Source of the DNA: a virus
IMG/VR virus record: IMGVR_UViG_3300009104_000006
Coordinates: 1-64,000 of that record
DNA length: 64,000 nucleotides
Direction: 5' to 3' (one strand)
The position numbers and the translations under genes are program-made. Below the pieces are notes generated by a model. The model did not search any database and had not been told where the DNA came from. It worked only from the letters and a program-made list of their open reading frames with translations. Below are positions 1 through 64,000 of the stretch, in pieces. The first letter of the stretch is position 1; each line of letters opens with the position of its first letter.

Positions 1-761
1 TCTCCCCACATCACTAATTCTTCAGTAGCGAGATTTCCACCGCTCCCCGGTATGAATGGGCAACCACCCATTCCTCCAATCGAAGAATCGAATTGTTCCA
101 CGCCACAATCGAAAGCAGCACTCAGATTATCCTTCATTCTGCCTCTTCTCTTACCATGATGGAGATGAAGGGCAATCTTAGCGTCTAACTCTTCTGTCCA
201 AGCCATCGTTTTGGTGATAAGAGGAGGGTTAGCCTTGCCGACCGTATCACATAGAACAATTGTAGAGCCCAATGTATCTGCCCAATCGAGCGCCTTCTCC
301 ATTAAGTTTCTTGGAATCTCGCCTGCAATAGGACAACCAAAAGAAGTGGAGAGATATACTCTGATGTTATCCTTCGGAACACCAGCAAGAGCATGGCAAT
401 AAGACGTGAAGATATGAGACATGGTTCTTCCGTGATTTCTCGTATTGAAGTAATCAGACGGTGAAAAGAAGACATTGTATTGGGTGACTCCTATATCCAT
501 TGCTCTCTCTATACCTTTTCTATTTGGAACGAGCATTCCTAATTCGCATTGAGACTGCAGCCAAGCCACTCTACTGAAAACCACTTCGCTATCAGCCATA
601 TTTGGAACCTTATCAGGATTCACCATAGCACCGACTTCAATCTTATCAATGCCCACTTGTGCTATCTTCTTGATGAGTTCTACTTTCTTATGAGTAGATG
701 TAATAGTGTCGCTACTTTGTAATCCGTCTCTCGGTCCCACTTCGTAAATGCTGAAGTCCAT
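1..761 (-). CDS. hmgL: Hydroxymethylglutaryl-CoA lyase (DRE-TIM family), C-terminus runs off the window
   Basis: Missing from the ORF track. Manual translation from ATG at 761: MDFSIYEVGPRDGLQ...STSFGCP...LCDTVGKANP...ALHLHH...FDSSIGGMGGCPFIPGSGGNLATEEL, the hallmark HMG-CoA lyase motifs. Confidence 0.92.
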   Translation of the reverse strand, partial: MDFSIYEVGPRDGLQSSDTITSTHKKVELIKKIAQVGIDKIEVGAMVNPDKVPNMADSEVVFSRVAWLQSQCELGMLVPNRKGIERAMDIGVTQYNVFFSPSDYFNTRNHGRTMSHIFTSYCHALAGVPKDNIRVYLSTSFGCPIAGEIPRNLMEKALDWADTLGSTIVLCDTVGKANPPLITKTMAWTEELDAKIALHLHHGKRRGRMKDNLSAAFDCGVEQFDSSIGGMGGCPFIPGSGGNLATEELVMWG

Positions 762-770
762 AAAACGGAC

Positions 771-1217
771 TTAGACTGTCTTTTGATTTAGAGGAATCGG
801 CACCAGTCGTTCTCTTGGTATCGCATTAGGAAAATAAGGTATGCCTTGATACCTTTTCATATCCAATCCTCCCCCTCTTATTCCGAACATAGCAGGTGCT
901 TGATTTCTATCTTGACTTCTCCATCTGGCATACTCTGCTCCGCCTTGTGGGTCATTACTTGCATAAACGCCATGAGGATACCAATCTTGCACAGGCTTAC
1001 CTTGCAGTTGTGCTGCGGTCTGCTGCATATTCATCTGTGCTTCATATGGTAATTTAGGCTGTAATCCTTGAGTTCCAATTGCCGCAGCAGGACCAACAGT
1101 AGTCCCATGATATTGGGTTACAGGTCCATGTGGTGAGGGAAAATCGGGATGAAACTCGCCTAATGTGCTCTGACGGGTCTGTTTCAGCAAAAGCCACGCT
1201 TGGTTGAAGGGGGTCAT
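771..1217 (-). CDS. Leader-bearing ADP-ribosyltransferase-fold protein (Tpt1/PARP-like) with PIP-box-like QSTLGEF
   Basis: Start MTPFNQAWLLLK at 1217 behind a GGAGTGA SD; motifs QYHGT..AAAI..QGL, GVYAS..A.YA and IPRERL typical of HYx ART folds. Confidence 0.65.
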   Translation of the reverse strand: MTPFNQAWLLLKQTRQSTLGEFHPDFPSPHGPVTQYHGTTVGPAAAIGTQGLQPKLPYEAQMNMQQTAAQLQGKPVQDWYPHGVYASNDPQGGAEYARWRSQDRNQAPAMFGIRGGGLDMKRYQGIPYFPNAIPRERLVPIPLNQKTV

Positions 1218-1225
1218 CCGTGAGT

Positions 1226-1696
1226 TCACTCCATGACTTTGACTGGTAAGGGCGTATCACCGTGACCACGAGCGAAGAGTTCAGCCATTCTATGTCTCCC
1301 TTCATGATATGTTTCAGGCTGAGAATCGGGAAAAACATATGGCATACCGAACTTGATGTCCTCTCCCGCTTGTGCTCTGTCCATCAACTCTTGATAGAAA
1401 GTATCATCTGACTCTCTTGGAGACTTTTTTCTTCCTAATGCGTCAATATATATACCGCCCTTTTCCTCTCCAGTAGTCATTTTTCCGTATTCACCGGGTG
1501 TTATGTGCTGAATCTCCCCCTGAGGAAAATTTAGACTGTGTCCTTTACTTGGGTCATCGGGAACGTAGCCGTATACATTCTCTTGTGACCTCCAATGGGG
1601 GTCATCTTCGCCTTGTGTAACAAAATTGATGTTGGGAATACCCGTTTCATAAATTGGTGCTTTAAGTAAAGCCCATGCTTGGTCGAAGGGGTTCAT
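1226..1696 (-). CDS. Leader-bearing ParB/Sulfiredoxin-like domain protein
   Basis: MNPFDQAWALLK leader; HEGRHRMA...LPVKV resembles the ParB/Srx (D/E)GxHR motif. Confidence 0.6.
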   Translation of the reverse strand: MNPFDQAWALLKAPIYETGIPNINFVTQGEDDPHWRSQENVYGYVPDDPSKGHSLNFPQGEIQHITPGEYGKMTTGEEKGGIYIDALGRKKSPRESDDTFYQELMDRAQAGEDIKFGMPYVFPDSQPETYHEGRHRMAELFARGHGDTPLPVKVME

Positions 1697-2400
1697 TGTT
1701 GTCCCTCCATGCTAAACATTTCGGGAGTGAGTTCCAAATTCCTTTCCTTATCATATTGCCCTCGTAGTTTCACACCAACTAAATCATCCATCATTTCTTG
1801 TGTGGCCGGATGAGGATATTCACCCCGATGTCCGCGATTATCGTCATAATCATCCGTTGAAATCTGCACAGGCACTGGCTCATCACCCATCAAATTATGA
1901 ATAGCCGCCATCCTGTGTCTCCCTTCGTGACCTATAACATTCCCCCTACTCACATTAAGATTTGGAATAAAAGTGGGCACGCCCGCCCTCATATTTTCCT
2001 CAATACCCTTGCCCGTCTTTGATTCTAAATAATGGCTAATATCAAGATTACCCTTTTCGTCGGCCCCGTAATATCCCGGCTCGTTCGTCGACGCCAAACT
2101 GAGAAAATCCGAGGGGCGCATCATAACTTTGCCCGCCATCCTACCAAACCACGGACTCCCACCCATCGGAAAATAATTCGGGACAATACGTTTGCTTTCC
2201 CAATCATGCCAATCGTCCCTCCAATGACTCGGCTTCTCGCCTAAATCCCTCGTTTGTGGAAAACCCTTTTCATCAAACCATTTTTTGTCCTCTTCATCTT
2301 CACCTGAATAAATCGGCTCATCCCTATCCCAAAATTCAGTCGGCCCAACTTTGTATCTCGCCATTTTGAGAACTTGCCACGCTTGGTCGAAGGGGGTCAC
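1693..2400 (-). CDS. Leader-bearing ParB/Sulfiredoxin-like domain protein
   Basis: GTG start overlaps the upstream stop (ATG at 2403 is an alternative); TPFDQAWQVLK leader; GHEGRHRMAAI...VPVQI. Confidence 0.6.
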   Translation of the reverse strand: MTPFDQAWQVLKMARYKVGPTEFWDRDEPIYSGEDEEDKKWFDEKGFPQTRDLGEKPSHWRDDWHDWESKRIVPNYFPMGGSPWFGRMAGKVMMRPSDFLSLASTNEPGYYGADEKGNLDISHYLESKTGKGIEENMRAGVPTFIPNLNVSRGNVIGHEGRHRMAAIHNLMGDEPVPVQISTDDYDDNRGHRGEYPHPATQEMMDDLVGVKLRGQYDKERNLELTPEMFSMEGQQ

Positions 2401-3044
2401 CATCTAAAACCACCTCTTTTAATCCGCTCCTCTTCCTCACGTCGCCATTGACGATATGAGTCTGCGGCAGGATTCTTTACTTTCACTCTTTCATCATCAC
2501 GCGCTTTCCCCCATTCATGAGAATGACTCACCGTAGACAACGGATGCCTCAAAGCCTCGGCAGGGTCATGCCTTGAAGCCATTAGTTCATGGACTAACTG
2601 TAATTGAACCATAGGCTTAACATCCCCTTGTTTAAGACTCGCGTATGCATTTTTGAAAGCACTAATCATCTCAGGTGTATTCTGTATAGCCTCATGGGTG
2701 CTTTCATGAGCGGCTGCATCTATAACATTCTCCATCAAAGGTTGGTCATATTTCTTGTCATAAGTGTCCCAACTGGTATTTCTAAAATCATCAATCTTGG
2801 GGTCATAATTTATCCCAAAACGACCATCTACACCCTCATAATCGCCCGCCTTATTGGGCCAACCTCTATGTGCTAAATTGACTCTACCTACCGAATTACC
2901 TGTTACATCGGTGTTATAGAAGCCCGGTGAAAAATCTCGGATAGGCAACGGATAGTGTTCTATCTCATCCTTAAACGGACTCTCTTCCGAATCAAGGAGA
3001 AATTCGGTTTTCAGCAAAAGCCACGCTTGGTTGAAGGGGTTCAT
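2397..3044 (-). CDS. Leader-bearing putative zincin metallopeptidase
   Basis: MNPFNQAWLLLK leader; AAHESTHEAI (HExxH) with a downstream HELMA glutamate. Confidence 0.55.
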   Translation of the reverse strand: MNPFNQAWLLLKTEFLLDSEESPFKDEIEHYPLPIRDFSPGFYNTDVTGNSVGRVNLAHRGWPNKAGDYEGVDGRFGINYDPKIDDFRNTSWDTYDKKYDQPLMENVIDAAAHESTHEAIQNTPEMISAFKNAYASLKQGDVKPMVQLQLVHELMASRHDPAEALRHPLSTVSHSHEWGKARDDERVKVKNPAADSYRQWRREEEERIKRGGFRW

Positions 3045-3697
3045 CTTTGCCCCCTATGCGGCCAATTACTTCTATCCTTGTGTTTCGCCCACATTCTTTC
3101 AGCATTATTGGTTTGGTTATCATCGCGCACAATTACATGACCTCCTCGTGTCTCCCTGTCGAGAACATCAGCAGCCATATCATACATGGCAGTCCCATGA
3201 CCCTGATGTTTGTAATTATCCAACATTATCATATAATCCATCAAACTGATGTCTGAATGTTCAGGATTATCTTTTTTCCAATCTTCAAATCCTTTCACTC
3301 TTCTCATTGGTCCAGCATCCTTGACTCTCGGCATACCTATCATGTTCCTGTTGGCGAAGTTATTATCGCTTTCTTGAGGTCGAAAGGAAGCCTCTGCTAT
3401 TGAGTGCCTGTAACCGTCATCGACCCATTCTTTTGGCACATCGCCCACATCATGATTAGGTGGTAAAATGTTCATGTTTATCGTCGGATATGAAAATCTC
3501 CCATACGCCGTGTCTGTTTCGGCATGATTGATGTCAGCCACCATCGGGTGCATCTCGCCAGTCTCAGGATGCTTGAAGTCAGCGACATAGCGAACGTTCT
3601 CATCCCCCTCATTATCTTGCCACGTGTCGCGCCTTTCTAAACTACCATCGACCATAGGTGCTTTGAGAAAAGTCCACGCTCGGTTGAAAGGGGTCAT
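3041..3697 (-). CDS. Leader-bearing GNAT acetyltransferase
   Basis: MTPFNRAWTFLK leader; YKHQGHGTAMYD (acetyl-CoA motif A) and QTNNAERMW. Confidence 0.65.
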   Translation of the reverse strand: MTPFNRAWTFLKAPMVDGSLERRDTWQDNEGDENVRYVADFKHPETGEMHPMVADINHAETDTAYGRFSYPTINMNILPPNHDVGDVPKEWVDDGYRHSIAEASFRPQESDNNFANRNMIGMPRVKDAGPMRRVKGFEDWKKDNPEHSDISLMDYMIMLDNYKHQGHGTAMYDMAADVLDRETRGGHVIVRDDNQTNNAERMWAKHKDRSNWPHRGQR

Positions 3698-5214
3698 TGG
3701 AAGCCTCCGGGTATTCTCTCAGCCATATCATCTCTGGAAATCGGTCCCAGCACGTGGTTGCGATTCTTATCATAGAAGGTATACATCCCATCTCTCTGTT
3801 CCCATCCCATTATGTTGTCTGCTGCACCATCAGGCATCAATCCTTGAATAAATGCATTTGGTAAATGCCCCCACTCTCGGTTGTGTTTGTTTCCATAGTA
3901 TTGCGGGGTCCAGTTTTTCGGCACACCCCCAGTAACGAGTTGCTCTGGTGGAAAATCCCCCTCAATATAGGCCTCTGCTCCTTCTGCAGAATGCCCAGTG
4001 TTAGCAAATTGCCCCGTCATTTTAGACGGGTCTCCTCTTACTCCTACCCATTGACTGACCTCACTATCGTTTCCTCCAAAGCCCACTGGCTTTACACGGT
4101 CTGTTTTTTCCTTCGATGAGTCACGGAGTCCTCCAAATTCCCTGCTTAAGTAGGCATCAACGTCATCAATTGCAGGCGCAGGAGACATAAAATTACCAAG
4201 ATAAGGATTTTCTTCGTCATGATAAGTCGAATCACCTATCTGGACCGGTGGCCCCGCTTCAAAAGGCATCCTCTTGCCATAATCTACTCTGCGAGGGTCA
4301 TGCTCGTGCTCCCACATCTGAGAATCTTCATGCATTTCGCGCCCTTTAATTCCCCGTTTTCGCGCATCCATCGCATGTTCGGGGTTCATATATCGTAAAG
4401 CGCTAACTGGTTCCACGCCCTCCCAACCAGTAGTCCTATCGAGACTCCAATCGTGCTCAGGTAAAATGCTATCACGAGAAGTCTCTGGATTGAGAATGGG
4501 GCTAAAAGGCATAGCATAATGCCTCGGTAGTTCTCTGTCTTCGCTAAATCCTAACTCTTCTAACTTGTTCCAATTGTTATTGATATCGGGATTAAACTTA
4601 ATTGAGTTGGCCCGCATCTCATCATAGGTTATCTGCCCCGCATGATAAGCACGGAGAGACTGTTCTCTTTTGTTAGCCAAATCTTCCAGATGAGCAACTT
4701 GTTCAGGAAGAGTTCTCGATACTGGTTGGTCTCTTAGATACCATTTTTCTTGAGGCGTAAGAAGTAAGCCATCTTCACCAAACCATTCCTTCCGTTGTTT
4801 AGATGTCGGTGAGCGATACGAAATCCGCTCTTCATTCCCTCTAAGCCTGTGTAGCCTTTCCGCCCATTCCCTTGCTTTTGCTTTGTTTTGTGCGTCAATA
4901 TGGTCCTGAGTCACTGGGAACGACAAACCGTCACCTTGATTCAGAAGCCTCTCGTGCACAACCTCATCGAGCCCCCAAGGCGCAAATGTCTTTAGTTCAT
5001 CCATCTCATTTGCGAACTCGTGAGGGTAATGTTCGTGATTTTTGGGCAACAAATACATCTTTACCGAGTTAGGAACCTCATCGTAGCGACGAAACCTCTC
5101 TAATTTTTCAAAAATTTTATTGTCCCTTCTCGGCACTGGTTTTGGCTTCATTCCCCATTGGTCTAACGTAGTCTGAGCCTTCAGAATATCGAATGCACTG
5201 TCGATAGGGTCCAC
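3694..5214 (-). CDS. Leader-bearing ~500-aa protein with PIP-box-like QTTLDQW and a possible ART-like C-terminal domain
   Basis: Likely GTG start at 5214 gives MDPIDSAFDILKA, a leader variant (ORF track starts at 5271); ALRYM..., GNFMSP, WVGVRG and AEAYIEGDFPPEQLV resemble ART-fold strands. Confidence 0.55.
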   Translation of the reverse strand: MDPIDSAFDILKAQTTLDQWGMKPKPVPRRDNKIFEKLERFRRYDEVPNSVKMYLLPKNHEHYPHEFANEMDELKTFAPWGLDEVVHERLLNQGDGLSFPVTQDHIDAQNKAKAREWAERLHRLRGNEERISYRSPTSKQRKEWFGEDGLLLTPQEKWYLRDQPVSRTLPEQVAHLEDLANKREQSLRAYHAGQITYDEMRANSIKFNPDINNNWNKLEELGFSEDRELPRHYAMPFSPILNPETSRDSILPEHDWSLDRTTGWEGVEPVSALRYMNPEHAMDARKRGIKGREMHEDSQMWEHEHDPRRVDYGKRMPFEAGPPVQIGDSTYHDEENPYLGNFMSPAPAIDDVDAYLSREFGGLRDSSKEKTDRVKPVGFGGNDSEVSQWVGVRGDPSKMTGQFANTGHSAEGAEAYIEGDFPPEQLVTGGVPKNWTPQYYGNKHNREWGHLPNAFIQGLMPDGAADNIMGWEQRDGMYTFYDKNRNHVLGPISRDDMAERIPGGFQ

Positions 5215-5353
5215 TGCACTCACGAATGACGGAAAGCGGTCAACCTCTTTGACGTTTCGATGAATAAACAATTGATAAATGAAACAAAGTCGCTTTGCGC
5301 GTGGATTATCTGTTTTTGTGAAAATTTTCTCCAGCGCTGTGCGTGACTATAGA

Positions 5354-5753
5354 GCGGTATGCTATTGCGGTATGCCCTATTGCTCCGGCTAAGGCTGCGG
5401 TATGCCCTGCGGTATGCACCACTGCGGCGGTGCAGTTTCCACACCATCTTGCGGTATGCCCTGCGGTATGCTTGCGGTATGCTATTGCTTTCGTGCGCTC
5501 ATATGACCGGCACACCCGCAAGCGGTGTGCCTCTCGCGTGTGCCGCAAGACGGCACTACGCTCGCACTATGCACCCATATACGCTCGTTTGCTAAGGGTC
5601 AAGGCTACAACAAAACCGCTATACTGCGCGGCTACGCCTTAACATCAACGCCAGCCCTTGCACCGCTTTGGATTCCCCACCCATGTGGTTGGTCGTATCA
5701 AATACACCTCTCCCCTACGCGGTTTGCTTTTGCGGTATGCTACTGCGGTATGC
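5354..5753 (+). repeat. Array of short GCGGTATGC repeats (9 exact copies plus variants)
   Basis: Exact copies start at 5354, 5367, 5397, 5409, 5451, 5463, 5474, 5732 and 5745; variants GCGGTGTGC and GCGGTTTGC. Confidence 0.9.
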
Positions 5754-5823
5754 TCCGAATCCTCTCGCATCACGCCTTGCGTCGCACGTAAGAGTAAGTA
5801 AATCCGCCCCCTTCTTTCATGCT

Positions 5824-5846
5824 TTGGTATTTAAACGAAGATAGTA
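5824..5846 (+). promoter_or_regulatory. Conserved 23-bp motif, copy 1 (putative viral early promoter)
   Basis: TTGGTATTTAAACGAAGATAGTA, identical in 9 copies; upstream of the 5875 gene. Confidence 0.8.
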
Positions 5847-5874
5847 TAGTGTATTTGCCGGACAACGGCGGAGA

Positions 5875-18725: not shown

Positions 18726-20020
18726 GTGGTTGCCATAAGAAAAATCCGTTGGTGTTCGACACCGGCACAGTGAAGGTATATGCAGGTGGAACGAATCGAG
18801 AGGGTGGGTGGCATAGAATGCCCAACAAACCCGATTTAGCGATGGGTCCGTTAGGTGTGATTGCATCGAATAAGACGGCAGACTTACTACCGAAGGGATG
18901 GAAGTCATCAAGCAACGTCATTGGAAACATACCAACAGTAGTGATGGAGATTGATTGGCCCGACTACGGCATACCAAAGAATCTCGGACCATCGTGGTGG
19001 GATGCGTTGGTGGAGGACATAGAAAGTAAGAATATCACTACCATCTCCACTCAGTGTATGGGAGGACATGGGAGAACAGGAGTTCAATTGGCTATTCTTG
19101 CGCACAAACTGATACCAGAAAAGGACCACACGTGGAAGGATGCGGCAGAACTCATCGCGTTCATCCGAGAATCCTACTGTAAACACGCAGTCGAATCCAA
19201 GCAACAACAAACCTACGTGGCAGACTGCTGCGGTCTTTCTGAAGGCGAAGCGATGACCTCAGTGCAAAAGAACGCATGGGCTGGCGTGGAGTTTGACGAC
19301 TCGGCACTTATGACCGACGATGAAATGGATGCTCAGATTCGTGAGAACGAAAGAAAGCGACGGGGTAAACCGAAGCCTCAGAAAGGTAAGGGGCGCAAGC
19401 GGGAACACTACGATGACCCAATCAAGAAGAATTGGACGCTCACTAAGTGCGACGATTGCCTTGACTATGAATGGAGGCGAACCACAGAAGAGGATATGGA
19501 CATACCTTGTCGAACTTGTGGCTCGCAAGCAATTATGCAAGCAGACATAGAATTGTTAGACGGTTATGGACTCACTCAATGCGCTCACACGAATCAGATG
19601 TGGCACCCTATCGAAATGTATGATGATAAAATGTCGTTCAAAGCAATCGCACTGGATAGACGTATGCAGGTAAGAGATGTGGAAGATAGTAATGGCGAAT
19701 ATCTCGGAACTGAAATCAAACTCAATACAGTTTGGCAACCTACATGGTGGATAACTCTCGATGAAAAAGATGACCTCGTCTCAGTGAGTAAAATTTACGG
19801 ACAGATGAGAAAGACCGAGAGGGAGTTCAAGAAGAAGAATAAGCCTACCTTAGATGATTACACAAATAAGAGGCCGAAGAAGCACCACCCTAACGATACA
19901 AGACTCGACGCATATAGAGAGAAGCGCAAGAGAGGCGAAGTCGAAGATGACTTCGATAGACTCATGGGCGACGACCTACATGGGCGAGCAACAAACGAAG
20001 AAATAGAAGCGGAGGACTGA
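18722..20020 (+). CDS. Cys-based protein tyrosine/dual-specificity phosphatase with Zn-finger C-terminal region
   Basis: IDWPDYGIP (WPD-like loop), QCMGGHGRTG (CX5R), AVESKQQ (Q-loop). Confidence 0.85.
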   Translation: MSGCHKKNPLVFDTGTVKVYAGGTNREGGWHRMPNKPDLAMGPLGVIASNKTADLLPKGWKSSSNVIGNIPTVVMEIDWPDYGIPKNLGPSWWDALVEDIESKNITTISTQCMGGHGRTGVQLAILAHKLIPEKDHTWKDAAELIAFIRESYCKHAVESKQQQTYVADCCGLSEGEAMTSVQKNAWAGVEFDDSALMTDDEMDAQIRENERKRRGKPKPQKGKGRKREHYDDPIKKNWTLTKCDDCLDYEWRRTTEEDMDIPCRTCGSQAIMQADIELLDGYGLTQCAHTNQMWHPIEMYDDKMSFKAIALDRRMQVRDVEDSNGEYLGTEIKLNTVWQPTWWITLDEKDDLVSVSKIYGQMRKTEREFKKKNKPTLDDYTNKRPKKHHPNDTRLDAYREKRKRGEVEDDFDRLMGDDLHGRATNEEIEAED

Positions 20021-20022
20021 AA

Positions 20023-20469
20023 ATGGAAACAATGATGGAAGAAGAAAGACTGCAAGTAAAGTGCAATTACGACGATGAATTGATGCACATACAAGGTGTA
20101 TCGGGGAAGACCCAAATGGGGAGAGAGTATGGAATTGCGGAGAAAATAAGGACGACGATGGACGTTAGTATGTGGTTGCGCGAGCAACCTCCTGTCCTCA
20201 AGTCTGCGGCATCTGGTGAACTGCTATACACACCTTTCACCATATACAGGTATGCAAATGGAGTGATGCAGATGTTCATTCCCGGCACGCCCGCTAACCA
20301 CCCACAAGGTGCTATGTTGGGATTACACCCCCTTTCTGAGGGAGTAAAGAGAGTGCTGACTTTCGCTAAGAAGGCCGGATTCATACAAGAGGCAGACACT
20401 GACCCGTATGTGCCGGAAGAAACGCTTAACCTCGATGCTGGACTATTCATAGAGGGGGAAGAGGAATGA
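20023..20469 (+). CDS. Hypothetical protein
   Basis: ORF with SD, ends GEEE. Confidence 0.65.
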   Translation: METMMEEERLQVKCNYDDELMHIQGVSGKTQMGREYGIAEKIRTTMDVSMWLREQPPVLKSAASGELLYTPFTIYRYANGVMQMFIPGTPANHPQGAMLGLHPLSEGVKRVLTFAKKAGFIQEADTDPYVPEETLNLDAGLFIEGEEE

Positions 20470-59623: not shown

Positions 59624-61035
59624 TAACTTTCACCTCGCATGATTACTGCGGCACTCTTGTTCAAGCCCATAGGCTTGTAGTTTTTACCGATTCTCCCTCT
59701 TTCGGCATTTTTTCCAATTATAAGCCCAGAAGACGACACTTGTCTTAATGTGATTATTGGTGTTATGAAAACATCCAATGAATCAAAGAAGGAAAGATTC
59801 TCATCCACAATCTGACTACTTTTATCTGGATTTTCAATTGAACCTCTTGAGATGCTACCGCTTGTGATATTCTGTAATACGCCCTCTATACCAGTATCTA
59901 ACGTCAAGAATGTAAAATCACTCGTCTTATTACTCAACTTGTGTTTTGATTCCATTACTACATACATATTATTGCCATATTCAACTACACTACCCGGTCT
60001 CAAATCCCAAGCATCTGGATGTCCATTTGTTACAATAGCCCCTCTCATAATCGAGTTTGCTTTCAATATCTGTCTTGCGACCTTCTTTGCACTCTGCACG
60101 CTGCTTATCGACGCATCATATATTGGTGTGGTGTTTTCGAGAATGTCTGTATCGAACTTACCCTGCTGTCTTGCACCATCGTCCATAGTAAGTATCAATT
60201 TCTCATTCAGAGCAATGGCCTCGCCCTGCACAGTAATTCGATTCTCTGTATTTTCCACTGGGCTTCTATCTTCACTCCCAGTTCTAAATTGTGGATTTAG
60301 TTGTTTAATTCCGCTTGAAAAGTTGAATGGCACGTATTGTAGTGCACCATGGCGATTGAATATCGAAATCCTGTTATCATGACGAGAGATGAATCTTAAT
60401 GCAGATAGCAGATTAACACCATTGAAATCTGCAGCAAGATACGTATTGCTTACCTTTCTTCTATTTTTACCCAAGTTCGCTATTGTGGGTGATTCGCCTA
60501 TCGTCACAGCAGTGATGGTGCCAGTGATAGAATTACCCAGTTTCATTGCCAAATCCGTTGTTCTCAACCCTACATCGACAATTTGACCAAAACGCAGTGC
60601 TTCTTCATCGAACCCTAAATCCTTCAATGTGCTACCTTTCAGATTCCTCACATTCACCCTTAATCCAGAAGTCGTGCTTTCATTACTACCTCCTATGATT
60701 CTATTCAACGGCTTATTTACACCATACATCAGAGATGTAGGCGCGTCTTTTCCTTTTCCTGTCCAGATAGTGCCTTTCAATGAGTGCCCATCTGTTTCGT
60801 TATGGGTGATATGCATACCAGATTCTGATTCTACAAATGTATATGTCTTTTCTGTCGCTAAATCGTAGTTCTGAGCATTCCTTGTCTCAATTGTAATTTT
60901 GCTCTTATTGCTACTTTGAGGTTGAATCTTAGCATAATGAACTGCATTATCTACGAATACAGGCTGTCTAACATCGTTCATTACTGAAGTGAGAGTGGTA
61001 TCGAAACGACCAACAGAAGATTGTATTAGTGTCAT
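59623..61035 (-). CDS. Putative tail/baseplate hub-like protein
   Basis: NRITVQGE, AKKVARQIL and DLRPGSVV resemble hub/tip proteins; operon context. Confidence 0.5.
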   Translation of the reverse strand: MTLIQSSVGRFDTTLTSVMNDVRQPVFVDNAVHYAKIQPQSSNKSKITIETRNAQNYDLATEKTYTFVESESGMHITHNETDGHSLKGTIWTGKGKDAPTSLMYGVNKPLNRIIGGSNESTTSGLRVNVRNLKGSTLKDLGFDEEALRFGQIVDVGLRTTDLAMKLGNSITGTITAVTIGESPTIANLGKNRRKVSNTYLAADFNGVNLLSALRFISRHDNRISIFNRHGALQYVPFNFSSGIKQLNPQFRTGSEDRSPVENTENRITVQGEAIALNEKLILTMDDGARQQGKFDTDILENTTPIYDASISSVQSAKKVARQILKANSIMRGAIVTNGHPDAWDLRPGSVVEYGNNMYVVMESKHKLSNKTSDFTFLTLDTGIEGVLQNITSGSISRGSIENPDKSSQIVDENLSFFDSLDVFITPIITLRQVSSSGLIIGKNAERGRIGKNYKPMGLNKSAAVIMRGES

Positions 61036-64000
61036 GCTCCATCCCCACTATGGTCTGTAATGCTAAATGAAATGTCCCCTTTGTGCCCCTTAGAATGCAA
61101 CGCTTGACTAAATCTTGGCTTAACAGAGAAGTCCATTCGCTTCATTTCGTCATCTGTATCTTCTTCTTGCCGCCTTCTTGGAGCATCGGAACGATGATGT
61201 TGTAGCGTATTATCAGAAATGACTAATCTACTCACTGTCGAGTTTAGACTCTCCTTGTCGAATCCAGAAACTTCTGTTCCGGGTAGTTTAGGACCGAAAC
61301 TCGTTGGTGCCGTGAAAGCCCCTGTGGGGTCGAATACGAATACTGGCAAGTAAGGCCCATTACCGTCCGGTAAACTTCTTCCAGATGCCAGATTCCCAGT
61401 GGCTGCTCTTCCATTACTAACTTCATACGTAAAGAGACCATATTTTCCACCAGATGATGCAAAGAGGTAATTCTGGTCGTATTGAGGAGTGCCAGTAACA
61501 ATTGAATTATGAATGCGATATACCTCTGTATGTTTAGAGTCTAAGGTTCTAATTGGTCGAAGTAAGAACTTTACATTCTTGTCTTTTTCGTTGTTTCTCA
61601 CTGATTTTGAGGTGTAGTCATCTGCATCTTGATATGGATTGCTCGTATCATTACTTCCCGTCAATGAAGCCACTCCCCAATTCGTATCATCAAACAATCC
61701 AGCATAGTTGCTTGCATCTAACACATAGGAACCGCCATAGGGTCTGAATGCGTTAGTGTGAGAATAGCGATGCACTGCACTTACAGGAGAGCCATTATTC
61801 TGTCTTCCAAATGCGCCACCTGTGTAATCGACATCGGCTATCGTATTAGTTCCAACTTGGAATCCACCATGAAGAACGACGCGCTGACCTACATTTCTGT
61901 CTGTATGAAGACTATGTGCCTCAGTATTGATAGCAATGTGATTTTGCTCTATTCCTTCAGTCACTTCAGCGTCTATTCCAATTCTGGGACTTGTTCTTGA
62001 TATTGCATCCTTATGAGGAGAAACGCCTACAAACTCTTCGATTCTATCACTTGCGACAGCCTCTGGCTTCAGTAACCCATTACTGTCTATCGCTAATTTA
62101 GCACTAATTCCCCTCTTGACTTCATCGGCTTGCAGTATAGCGTTACGGGGACGTAGCAAACCATCTCCAAAGAGCGGTTCGGCAGTATTATGACTCAAGA
62201 CTACACCCGTTTTGTGGATAGGGGCCGAAAGTTCAGTAAGCACATCCTCATTAAATCGCGTTGGATAACGCACGCCACGACCATTACCCATATCTCCCAC
62301 ACGCATAGAGTGAGTTGGCGCAAATACATCTACCAAATCATGGCCTGTATTAGTTGCATGTAAGTTCACATCGTTGTTTGTGCCACCAAATCTCGGTATC
62401 GTAGTCGTCACACTCACATTGCCGTTAGATAGATTAGCCACCCCCTTCATATTGAAAATTGGTTTAGCATTATTCCAAATTCTCCGATATGGGCTTCTGC
62501 TATTCCTTCTATCGTTCTCATAAGCGTCACCACAGTCCCATGCCGGTCTAATGCCGAATCCACGCACTGGAGCACGCCTTACATCCTCTCCTCGCTCGTT
62601 GCCCCACCAATCCACCAGATAATACTGAGAGGCCTCAGATAGGCTTGTTTTGTCCATAGCCACTTCATCTCCCCACCAGTCTCTTTGAGTTCCTGCGTTA
62701 TTGGTTAGTGTTCTCACAGGAGTCCCAAAGGGTCTGGTCATCCTTCTACCGTCGCTATAACGCACTTGCCAGTCCGCTTGGTCTTGAGCCAACATTCCTG
62801 TGAAATTGGTCTGTCTTTCCATAATTCCAACATATGTGGTAGGATGAGTCGCATTGGAAAGTCCCGAACCGCCTGCATAAGTCCATGTCGCAGTTTCAGT
62901 CTGAACCAGTGGCCCAGCGTCATAATCAAGAGTTTTGATGCCAGACCCGGTTGGATTTGTTTCATAGACTGCTCTGGTCGGACTGAGACCGTATGTAGGC
63001 CTGTTACAGGCTTGACGTATAGCGTTACGGTAGCCATACGGTTTTCTTCGAGAAGAGCCCATAGCGGCCGTTGTGATGCCCGAAGAGACAGAATAACTGC
63101 CGTCATCATCGCTATCTACCCATTCTCGAAGGTCGCTGGAAGTGAAATTGGGATTTCCATCGCTGTGATTGTGCACATTCCAAGATGCGCTTGCAAAACT
63201 GAAAAGGTCAAGTTTGCTGACATGAGGGCCGCCACGACTTCCACAAGGCCAAAAACCACTCAACATTACATCGGTTCCTCCCGCTTGATGGTCAGTGCCA
63301 GTTGTAGCGGCAACTGTTTCTCCTGTCTTCGATATGTTAGGTGTCATAATTAGGAAGTCAAATGGTCCGGCACTCATAGCATGTGTAAAATCATGATAAT
63401 GTATAGTCTCAAAGTGTTCTGGTATTGAATTATACGATGCTTTATCCACAGCAACACTTCCCCAAGTAGTTCGACTATCTGAGAAATACGTATTTGGCCT
63501 TCCTAAATTAGGATGCCACATACATAGGAAAGCATCTGGTGTATAAGATGAATATGTATCACGATTACCATTCACTATATCTGGTAGTATATTCGCAAAT
63601 ACACTCTTCTTTCTATCTGTAAGTAGTTTACTTGCAGATAATGTATTGTATGAATGTGATAATCGTAGTTCTGCACCATCGTATATATTGTCCCAGAAAT
63701 TATCTGAACCCGATTTAGCAGCCAAATAGATGGTATTCGGCACATTCACATTTGCAGCATCATTACCGCTTCTCTTTGTATACGGTTTAGAATAGATATC
63801 TCCATTCTTTGCCGTGTATTCAATCTCCTGAGCGTAATGAGAGGTTAATGGGAATAGATTTGCATTGTCTACGGTAATTGTCCCACCTGTATTGAAGGAT
63901 TCAACAATGCATTTTGGATTAAGGCTGACAATTTGTCGTAGTTTAGAGTATATGTCAAGGTATGTTGAGGTATATCCATTGATAGTTTGTTGATTGCCTA
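61032..64000 (-). CDS. Large virion protein, N-terminus beyond the window
   Basis: Reading frame stays open from 63749 to the window edge (checked by manual translation). Confidence 0.75.
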   Translation of the reverse strand, partial: GNQQTINGYTSTYLDIYSKLRQIVSLNPKCIVESFNTGGTITVDNANLFPLTSHYAQEIEYTAKNGDIYSKPYTKRSGNDAANVNVPNTIYLAAKSGSDNFWDNIYDGAELRLSHSYNTLSASKLLTDRKKSVFANILPDIVNGNRDTYSSYTPDAFLCMWHPNLGRPNTYFSDSRTTWGSVAVDKASYNSIPEHFETIHYHDFTHAMSAGPFDFLIMTPNISKTGETVAATTGTDHQAGGTDVMLSGFWPCGSRGGPHVSKLDLFSFASASWNVHNHSDGNPNFTSSDLREWVDSDDDGSYSVSSGITTAAMGSSRRKPYGYRNAIRQACNRPTYGLSPTRAVYETNPTGSGIKTLDYDAGPLVQTETATWTYAGGSGLSNATHPTTYVGIMERQTNFTGMLAQDQADWQVRYSDGRRMTRPFGTPVRTLTNNAGTQRDWWGDEVAMDKTSLSEASQYYLVDWWGNERGEDVRRAPVRGFGIRPAWDCGDAYENDRRNSRSPYRRIWNNAKPIFNMKGVANLSNGNVSVTTTIPRFGGTNNDVNLHATNTGHDLVDVFAPTHSMRVGDMGNGRGVRYPTRFNEDVLTELSAPIHKTGVVLSHNTAEPLFGDGLLRPRNAILQADEVKRGISAKLAIDSNGLLKPEAVASDRIEEFVGVSPHKDAISRTSPRIGIDAEVTEGIEQNHIAINTEAHSLHTDRNVGQRVVLHGGFQVGTNTIADVDYTGGAFGRQNNGSPVSAVHRYSHTNAFRPYGGSYVLDASNYAGLFDDTNWGVASLTGSNDTSNPYQDADDYTSKSVRNNEKDKNVKFLLRPIRTLDSKHTEVYRIHNSIVTGTPQYDQNYLFASSGGKYGLFTYEVSNGRAATGNLASGRSLPDGNGPYLPVFVFDPTGAFTAPTSFGPKLPGTEVSGFDKESLNSTVSRLVISDNTLQHHRSDAPRRRQEEDTDDEMKRMDFSVKPRFSQALHSKGHKGDISFSITDHSGDGA

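Follow-up and report, generated by a model that had tools for sequence, protein, structure and literature searches.

A portable ten-residue peptide on otherwise unrelated late proteins of group-A magroviruses, a candidate capsid-targeting and release signal

Why should six adjacent viral genes, whose products otherwise fall into five families, begin with the same short peptide? The question is raised by an array of six minus-strand genes at positions 771-5214 of the window analysed here, the first 64 kb of a 102,093-bp IMG/VR virus record (the whole record is labelled G000). The array lies at the opposite end of the record from the head module, and its genes are translationally coupled by 4-nt start/stop overlaps of the ATGA/GTGA type, with one 8-nt gap (Table 1). 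An earlier note on this DNA had described six packed genes with one N-terminal leader, hereafter the tag, and this description was confirmed. The array consensus is M-x-[P]-[FI]-[DN]-x-A-[WF]-x-x-L-K, the P-[FI]-[DN] part beginning two codons past each start, and a degenerate DNA pattern of the peptide gave six matches in the window, compared to 0.01 expected from shuffles, and no others there. The note had also placed the array on the strand of the structural genes, and the genes for the terminase large subunit (TerL), the portal, the S78 protease-scaffold and the major capsid protein (MCP) are indeed all on the minus strand.

Judging from its gene content, the virus is a group-A magrovirus, an ocean archaeal virus. 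The window codes for a family-B DNA polymerase, an RFC-like clamp loader, an ATP-dependent ligase, an SNF2 helicase and a thermosome-type chaperonin, and the same gene combination is what Philosof et al. report for the group-A magroviruses that infect marine group II archaea (PMC5434244). Early and replication units occupy the plus strand from 5.8 to 49 kb, and fibre, tail and head genes the minus strand from 49.5 kb to the record end. No mention of the tag was found in the magrovirus papers PMC5434244 and PMC11706807.

How far does the tag extend beyond this array? Its strict pattern was found in 28 stretches of the viral collection, many of them multi-copy, and gave five isolated matches in unrelated bacteria, approximately the chance number, in 596 Gb of prokaryote genomes. 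For comparison we used 16 related contigs (four in full), all with the same MCP at 76-100% identity. These contigs contain 140 motif copies, which lie on the MCP strand throughout except for two chance-level hits, and the reversed pattern, applied as a control, had no match in them. Of the 140 tag 30-mers 129 are unique, and codons for the same residue are identical in only 43-47% of pairs, both within and between genomes. Since synonymous codons vary while the residues are kept, selection acts on the peptide and not on the DNA. Genes 1 and 4 share one and the same 30-mer of tag DNA, and pairs of this kind make occasional conversion or cassette exchange at the tag likely. Altogether, the existence of the tag as a portable peptide module, specific to this lineage and linked to late genes, can be taken as solid. 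The only tag-like N-terminus off the late strand belongs to a 222-aa gene starting MTIHDAWA[FL]LK, located in the replication module and opposite in strand to the late genes (L052:1154-1822 in G003; 19748-20416 in G002); it has no Pfam match and no counterpart in G000.

The tag occurs in two forms. The N-terminal form, represented by 93 unique copies, reads M-[TNS]-[PA]-F-[DNE]-x-A-W-x-h-L-K (h, hydrophobic residue), and the residue preceding its Pro/Ala is usually a helix N-cap residue. In both AlphaFold2 models obtained, those of genes 1 and 3, the tag appears as a detached helix of low confidence. The second form, x-G-E-P-M-D-I-A-F-Q-L-L-K, is represented by 34 unique copies and is internal, at unit boundaries within larger proteins, so that the leader, contrary to what had been proposed, is not strictly N-terminal. 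A 960-aa protein of G002 combines a degenerate N-terminal copy with four internal copies, and the gene at L059 1946-3100 holds three. In the neighbouring L059 3097-4251, a zincin-like unit is separated by SE-PFDQAWTLLK from the HD hydrolase unit that comes after it (Pfam HD_4 at 9e-6, phrog_990 at 2e-37), and this same HD unit is a separate tagged gene in G004. In the window, gene 4 is divided into two units by a degenerate internal tag, AFKNAYASLK, at 2631-2660. The giant protein of G000 contains one significant tag copy as well. Tag and domain thus form a unit that may stand as a separate gene or be part of a polyprotein. As the copies that are not N-terminal lie at unit boundaries, they fit a modular tag and back the view of the array as a polyvalent protein split into separate genes; relatives carry the same units joined, with a tag at each junction.

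The attached proteins, referred to here as cargo, are diverse. Approximately 136 cargo units carried by the 16 contigs fall into 76 BLAST clusters, in agreement with the expectation that the leader would be fused to diverse domains. After removal of the tag, the five cargo families of the window had no profile-profile similarity to one another (hhalign probability <=0.6%). The earlier view of the array as carrying unrelated cargo therefore stands for these families; genes 2 and 3 are paralogues. None of the six array proteins had a match of significant E-value in Pfam or PHROGs, and the families of genes 1, 2/3 and 6 had no hits at E up to 10 when searched against PDB profiles. With the exception of the HD domain, the cargo assignments that follow are leads.

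Genes 2 and 3 have the signature HEGRHR...GHGDTPxPV in common, with an invariant HEGRHR core. In a Foldseek search against PDB with the gene 3 model (pLDDT 60), the top 13 rows were sulfiredoxin, ParB, KorB, Noc or Osa chains, and the same chain types filled most rows to rank 33, with weak scores (best E 0.03, prob 0.75). One of the 110 tagged units scanned, its gene not assigned, matched the PHROG 'ParB-like partition protein' at 3e-5. The cargo of genes 2 and 3 is thus putatively ParB/Srx-like, with weak fold support, as the earlier note had named it. Weak fold support likewise suggests that the gene 1 cargo is ADP-ribosyltransferase (ART)-like: a wide VIA-align search with its model (pLDDT 57) returned mostly ART-fold chains in the top 34 rows, including KptA/Tpt1, exotoxin A, PARPs and DarT, at Z <=4.4, and Foldseek returned nothing clear with this model. 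The YHGT...GL element of gene 1 (YHGTT at 1098-1112, GTQGL at 1062-1076) resembles the NAD-binding HG[ST] element. For gene 5, an Atlas feature search, itself a language-model lead, pointed to GNAT clusters at 0.92, and motif A (HQGHGTA) is present. One of the 110 units, again with its gene not assigned, matched Pfam GNAT at E 0.004, and the gene 5 relative L050:8663-9130, scanned alone, had no Pfam hit; the proposed GNAT identity is kept as a lead. The HExxH of gene 4 is HESTH at residues 113-117, and HExxH is found in five independent tagged units compared to approximately 0.6 expected, which makes a zincin metallopeptidase a lead for this gene.

For gene 6 the proposed name, a second ART-like protein, is unsupported. 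It has no Pfam, PHROG, PDB-profile or usable Atlas match, and in hhalign comparisons with the gene 1 family either only the tag plus QTTL was aligned or the probability was 0.6%, without similarity at the level of the cargo. Only five homologues were found, all of them tagged where the N-terminus is present. Among the other cargo of the relatives are HD hydrolases, zinc ribbons, DUF3293, a weak SAM-lyase match and the basic C-terminal domain DUF6321/phrog_6437. The basic domain, of approximately 80 aa (ERKSPxA...KLEYDKQY...DVSHTQGG...NRARH), regularly follows the last internal tag of the polyproteins. It was found at L044:14417-14692, L059:2831-3097 and eight other sites, apparently the same units as the Pfam DUF6321 matches, and may be a DNA-binding head-internal module.

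What, then, could the tag do? The reading that we put forward, with a probability of about one half, is drawn by analogy: the tag may be a functional counterpart of the capsid-targeting sequence (CTS) of phage T4, combining capsid targeting with removal by the S78 protease. The ten-residue helix [PA]-[FMI]-[DNE]-x-A-[WF]-x-h-L-K would act in the late proteins of group-A magroviruses as a portable module for address and release, placed at the N-terminus of stand-alone genes and at every polyprotein unit boundary. It would most likely dock the attached domain onto a common partner within the assembling procapsid, after which the S78 prohead protease would remove the tag after L-K. In this way a changeable enzyme set would travel in the head with the DNA and be brought into the Poseidoniales host; it would comprise ParB/Srx-like, ART-like, zincin-like, GNAT-like and HD hydrolase domains as well as small proteins that are basic or of the zinc-ribbon type. 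Of these elements we infer the docking partner and the steps of packaging, cleavage and injection. The proposal draws on the late-strand location of the tag, on the position of the array just upstream of the late module, on the further tagged genes that G000 has among its head-tail genes and on the lack of an early motif before the array; furthermore, the cargo repertoire is like that of injected polyvalent proteins (PMC5512222) and the logic like that of the T4 CTS (PMC9026906).

The ending of the tag also bears on this proposal. The tag ends in h-L-K, and this motif recurs, kept in three or four of four genomes, at positions where maturation cuts are expected, in the MCP, the giant head protein and the protease-scaffold (Table 1). 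None of the four portals contains [IL]LK, and neither do three of the four TerL proteins. Moreover, h-[LIM]-K occurs within the first 45 residues of 65 of 229 late-strand open reading frames (ORFs) (28%), compared to 19 of 247 on the early strand (8%), and the two strands are alike at residues 45-90. The protease itself matches Peptidase_S78 and the PHROGs of HK97-type head-maturation proteases. In HK97 itself the protease cuts gp5 after a lysine, between K103 and S104. No paper on N-terminal processing of halovirus or magrovirus capsid proteins was found in a literature search. As trypsin also cuts after K, peptides starting after LK would be confounded as a proteome sign of tag removal.

Several observations weigh against capsid targeting and release. 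A position-specific scoring matrix (PSSM) of the tag, run on TerL, portal, protease-scaffold and MCP of four genomes, gave best scores within the shuffle range, and with no significant match neither a receptor nor mimicry is identified. The earlier note had anticipated a possible resemblance to scaffold or capsid sites, and the part of the tag that recurs is the h-L-K ending common to MCP, protease and giant protein. This motif is short, and two sites in a 460-aa protein are only about five times the expectation. The hydrophobic moment of the tag, 0.42-0.48, is reached by 10-17% of shuffles, so that the amphipathicity ascribed to the leader is not statistically distinctive. Most of the cargo is acidic, where the internal proteins of T4 are basic, and the MTIHDAWAFLK-type gene stands in the replication module of G002 and G003.

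Two more comparisons with the head proteins were made. A half-motif PSSM (A-W-x-h-L-K) did not rank the MCP or protease sites. Mimicry of the scaffold tail by the tag was not confirmed for this genome; MSWDEVH has just small-W-x-x-aliphatic in common with the tag. The tail itself, ST(E/M)D(L/M)AxMSWD(E/D)VHxLA at the C-terminus of the protease-scaffold (L035:6348-7730), is kept in four genomes.

How close is the resemblance to T4? There, the CTS of IPI-III and Alt, encoded at the T-even internal-protein locus, is an N-terminal peptide of approximately ten residues on otherwise unrelated proteins, and it ends in a gp21 site that is also used in head proteins (PMC9026906). The magrovirus tag is alike in length, in its N-terminal position on unrelated proteins and in a terminal motif, here the putative h-L-K, which would be that used by the prohead protease in head proteins. 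In both cases the cargo set changes between relatives and includes an ART, a putative one in the magroviruses, and the genes are expressed with the head genes, in the magroviruses presumably so. The differences are substantial: the protease here is of the S78 (HK97) type and not gp21, the putative cut follows Lys and not Glu, the magrovirus tag is also internal in polyproteins, the cargo families are far more numerous and mostly acidic, and the host is an archaeon. In addition, the function has been demonstrated in T4, whereas here we infer it. The tag peptide is presumably also unlike the T4 CTS in sequence. These comparisons suggest that the magrovirus tag is an analogue and not a member of the T4 CTS system.

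Other systems offer partial parallels. Encapsulin cargo-loading peptides are likewise short terminal peptides, through which diverse enzymes dock on the inside of an HK97-fold shell; unlike the tag they are usually C-terminal, extended instead of helical, and uncleaved, and neither DNA nor injection is involved. With polyvalent and MuF-linked proteins (PMC5512222) the magrovirus proteins have in common disparate enzyme domains (ART, ParB-like, zincin peptidase) in a late or head gene context, and relatives of this virus carry three to five units per polypeptide. They differ in that magrovirus units are separated by a fixed ten-residue module and are often separate genes, in that their assignments are weak, and in that no MuF domain was detected here. 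If at least two domains of disparate activity per polypeptide mark a polyvalent protein (Iyer et al. 2017), the 960-aa protein of G002 and L059 3097-4251 would be of this kind; the six window genes are separate, with gene 4 of two units. The ejection proteins of the giant phages SPN3US and phiKZ (PMC10052503, PMC7411985) are also head-internal proteins that are cut by the head protease at a short motif and ejected with the DNA; their propeptides are long and dissimilar, and both protease family and motif (A-x-E) differ.

A more elaborate version of the proposal concerns what follows the tag. Directly after L-K, Q-x-x-[LIM]-x-x-[FYW] is present in 9 of 140 units compared to 0.75 expected (for example AQTTLDQW and RQSTLGEF; window 5155-5175 and 1161-1181, L044:13325-13350, L054:14328-14350). 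This is either a PIP-box-like motif, which would be N-terminal after an L-K cut, or the start of a shared ART-type domain. In a two-part code, the helix would load the procapsid, and the L-K cut by the HK97-type protease would expose the PIP-like box (Q-x-x-L-x-x-aromatic) for binding to the host sliding clamp. The subset concerned would be ART-like units, gene 6 and DUF3293-like units, and this would be the first virion-delivered effector arsenal of an archaeal virus. We consider this combination quite improbable. A PIP box was also tried as an explanation of the tag itself and rejected, since only 29 of 93 copies have Q at position 4.

If capsid targeting and release were correct, one tag would give a common fate, that of head cargo, to approximately 1 gene in 10 and to more than 70 protein families of viruses that are among the most abundant in the surface ocean, whose hosts are uncultured and most of whose genes are without assigned function. 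It would also mean that cargo loading of the T4 kind had an independent origin in an archaeal virus whose protease is of the HK97 type, and would provide a short, portable peptide with which foreign proteins could be loaded into HK97-fold particles. The question of whether archaeal tailed viruses inject proteins would become testable with recombinant procapsids, without host culture.

Could the peptide instead be a docking code without any packaging? The helix, with F/W/L at i, i+4 and i+7, might bind one viral or host hub in the infected cell, such as a chaperonin, sliding clamp, polymerase or membrane complex, so that the enzymes would be gathered late and never be in virions. Linear docking motifs typically have this form, a short helix conserved across unrelated proteins; the lack of a PSSM match in head proteins and the tagged gene in the replication module of G002 and G003 would fit, PIP-like boxes are in excess after the tag, and the virus itself encodes a thermosome and a clamp loader. 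We nevertheless hold this to be unlikely: nearly all copies lie within or beside the head-tail module and on its strand, and the boundary copies together with the h-L-K common to MCP, protease and giant protein point to head maturation.

Somewhat less probable, in our view, is that the tag is a processing site only, at which either the S78 protease or the tagged zincin-like peptidases would cut polyproteins and pre-proteins, freeing or activating their units in the cytoplasm, without targeting to the capsid. The internal copies (GE-PMDIAFQLLK) lie between units and are highly uniform, and HExxH units are common in the cargo, both of which such a role would explain. It leaves unexplained why a small stand-alone protein should carry a 12-residue pre-sequence, which has little purpose if it is merely removed, and why conservation spans ten residues (F2, A5, W6, L9), beyond the h-L-K of the candidate head sites.

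An adaptor on the outside of the virion is very unlikely. Here the peptide would plug variable proteins onto tail, neck or baseplate, in the manner of the common N-terminal anchors of phage receptor-binding proteins. Two further tagged genes of G000 do lie amid head-tail and tail genes (85565-86425, with an N-terminal and an internal copy, and 80972-81196). The cargo, small and enzyme-like or basic and nucleic-acid-binding-like, is not fibre-like, and polyproteins of four or five units do not fit an anchor. Largely refuted, and hardly credible, is a DNA recombination anchor, a conserved 30-36 bp of homology for cassette swapping with the peptide as by-product: it is suggested by the identical 30-mer of genes 1 and 4, by near-identical 30-mers before different cargo in G002 and by tag variants that do not track cargo between G000 and G002, and contradicted by 140 copies in which synonymous sites vary freely and residues are kept, by a tag DNA identity within genomes (0.645) close to that between genomes (0.628) and by internal copies that keep the peptide in quite different codons. 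As a side effect, the tag DNA may ease cassette exchange.

The coordinates of the array, of the head module and of the candidate maturation sites are collected in Table 1.

Table 1. Array genes, neighbouring features, head-module genes and candidate h-L-K sites. Positions are those of the window unless the record is named; a slash marks the candidate cut.
Feature	Position	Strand	Remarks
Gene 6, first of array	3694..5214	minus	tag MDPIDSAFDILK at 5179-5214; then AQTTLDQW and 494-aa cargo
Gene 5	3041..3697	minus	tag MTPFNRAWTFLK at 3662-3697; GNAT-like cargo (lead), HQGHGTA at 3188-3208
Gene 4	2397..3044	minus	tag MNPFNQAWLLLK at 3009-3044; HExxH at 2694-2708
Gene 3	1693..2400	minus	tag (M)TPFDQAWQVLK at 2365-2400; putative ParB/Srx-like cargo, HEGRHR at 1912-1929
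Gene 2	1226..1696	minus	tag MNPFDQAWALLK at 1661-1696; gene 3 paralogue, HEGRHR at 1289-1306
Gene 1	771..1217	minus	tag MTPFNQAWLLLK at 1182-1217, then QTRQSTLGEF; putative ART-like cargo
HMG-CoA-lyase-like gene (DRE-TIM; HMGL)	3..761	minus	no tag; adjoins array downstream; broken by contig end
Divergent intergenic region upstream of array	5272..5874		several copies of core CATACCGCA, about nine by eye
TTGGTATTTAAACGAAGATAGTA copies	5824, 7533, 14225, 16245, 21291, 27802, 30740, 33081, 44289	plus	23-bp early motif
MCP	88148-89314 of record	minus
S78 protease-scaffold	89348-90730 of record	minus
Giant head protein	90766-96435 of record	minus	1889 aa
Portal	97643-99433 of record	minus
TerL	100621-102084 of record	minus
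h-L-K site in MCP	residue 34		GSELLK/ADSP; 4/4 genomes
h-L-K site in giant protein	N-terminus		SELLK/AIYD
h-L-K site in protease	residue 22		IAILK/GGND
h-L-K site at S78 domain/scaffold junction			FSILK/ED

The starts of two array genes allow alternatives. Gene 6 starts with GTG at 5214 and has an alternative TTG at 5271; gene 3 starts with GTG, with an ATG one codon upstream at 2403.

The gene order around the array is informative about the ends of the record. In G001-G003 the genes follow one another on one strand as tag array, HMGL-like gene, 10-15 kb of more tagged genes and polyproteins, and TerL, after which come HNH, portal, giant protein, protease-scaffold and MCP. In G000 the contig begins within the HMGL-like gene, and only 9 bp lie between the start of TerL and the other end of the contig. 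With these two genes at opposite contig ends, G000 is probably without the intervening 10-15 kb block. The HMGL-like gene, which directly follows the array in G001-G003 too, is a possible auxiliary metabolic gene within the late block.

The nine copies of the early motif TTGGTATTTAAACGAAGATAGTA are perfect, are all on the plus strand, heading early and replication units, and none precedes the array. Allowing up to four mismatches brought up no further copy in the 102-kb record, and G001-G003 have not kept the motif. As to a late promoter, the DNA upstream of the array shares no motif with the intergenic gaps of the late genes. In the divergent region the copies of CATACCGCA lie within 5340-5760, where TRF detected three short arrays (periods of 11-13); the copies are candidates for origin iterons or for sites of a regulator. 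Outside the array, a single late-strand ORF of 5515 aa extends from 61032-64000 of the window to 77579 of the record and has a counterpart of 5516 aa in G002; it presumably encodes a giant tail or fibre protein.

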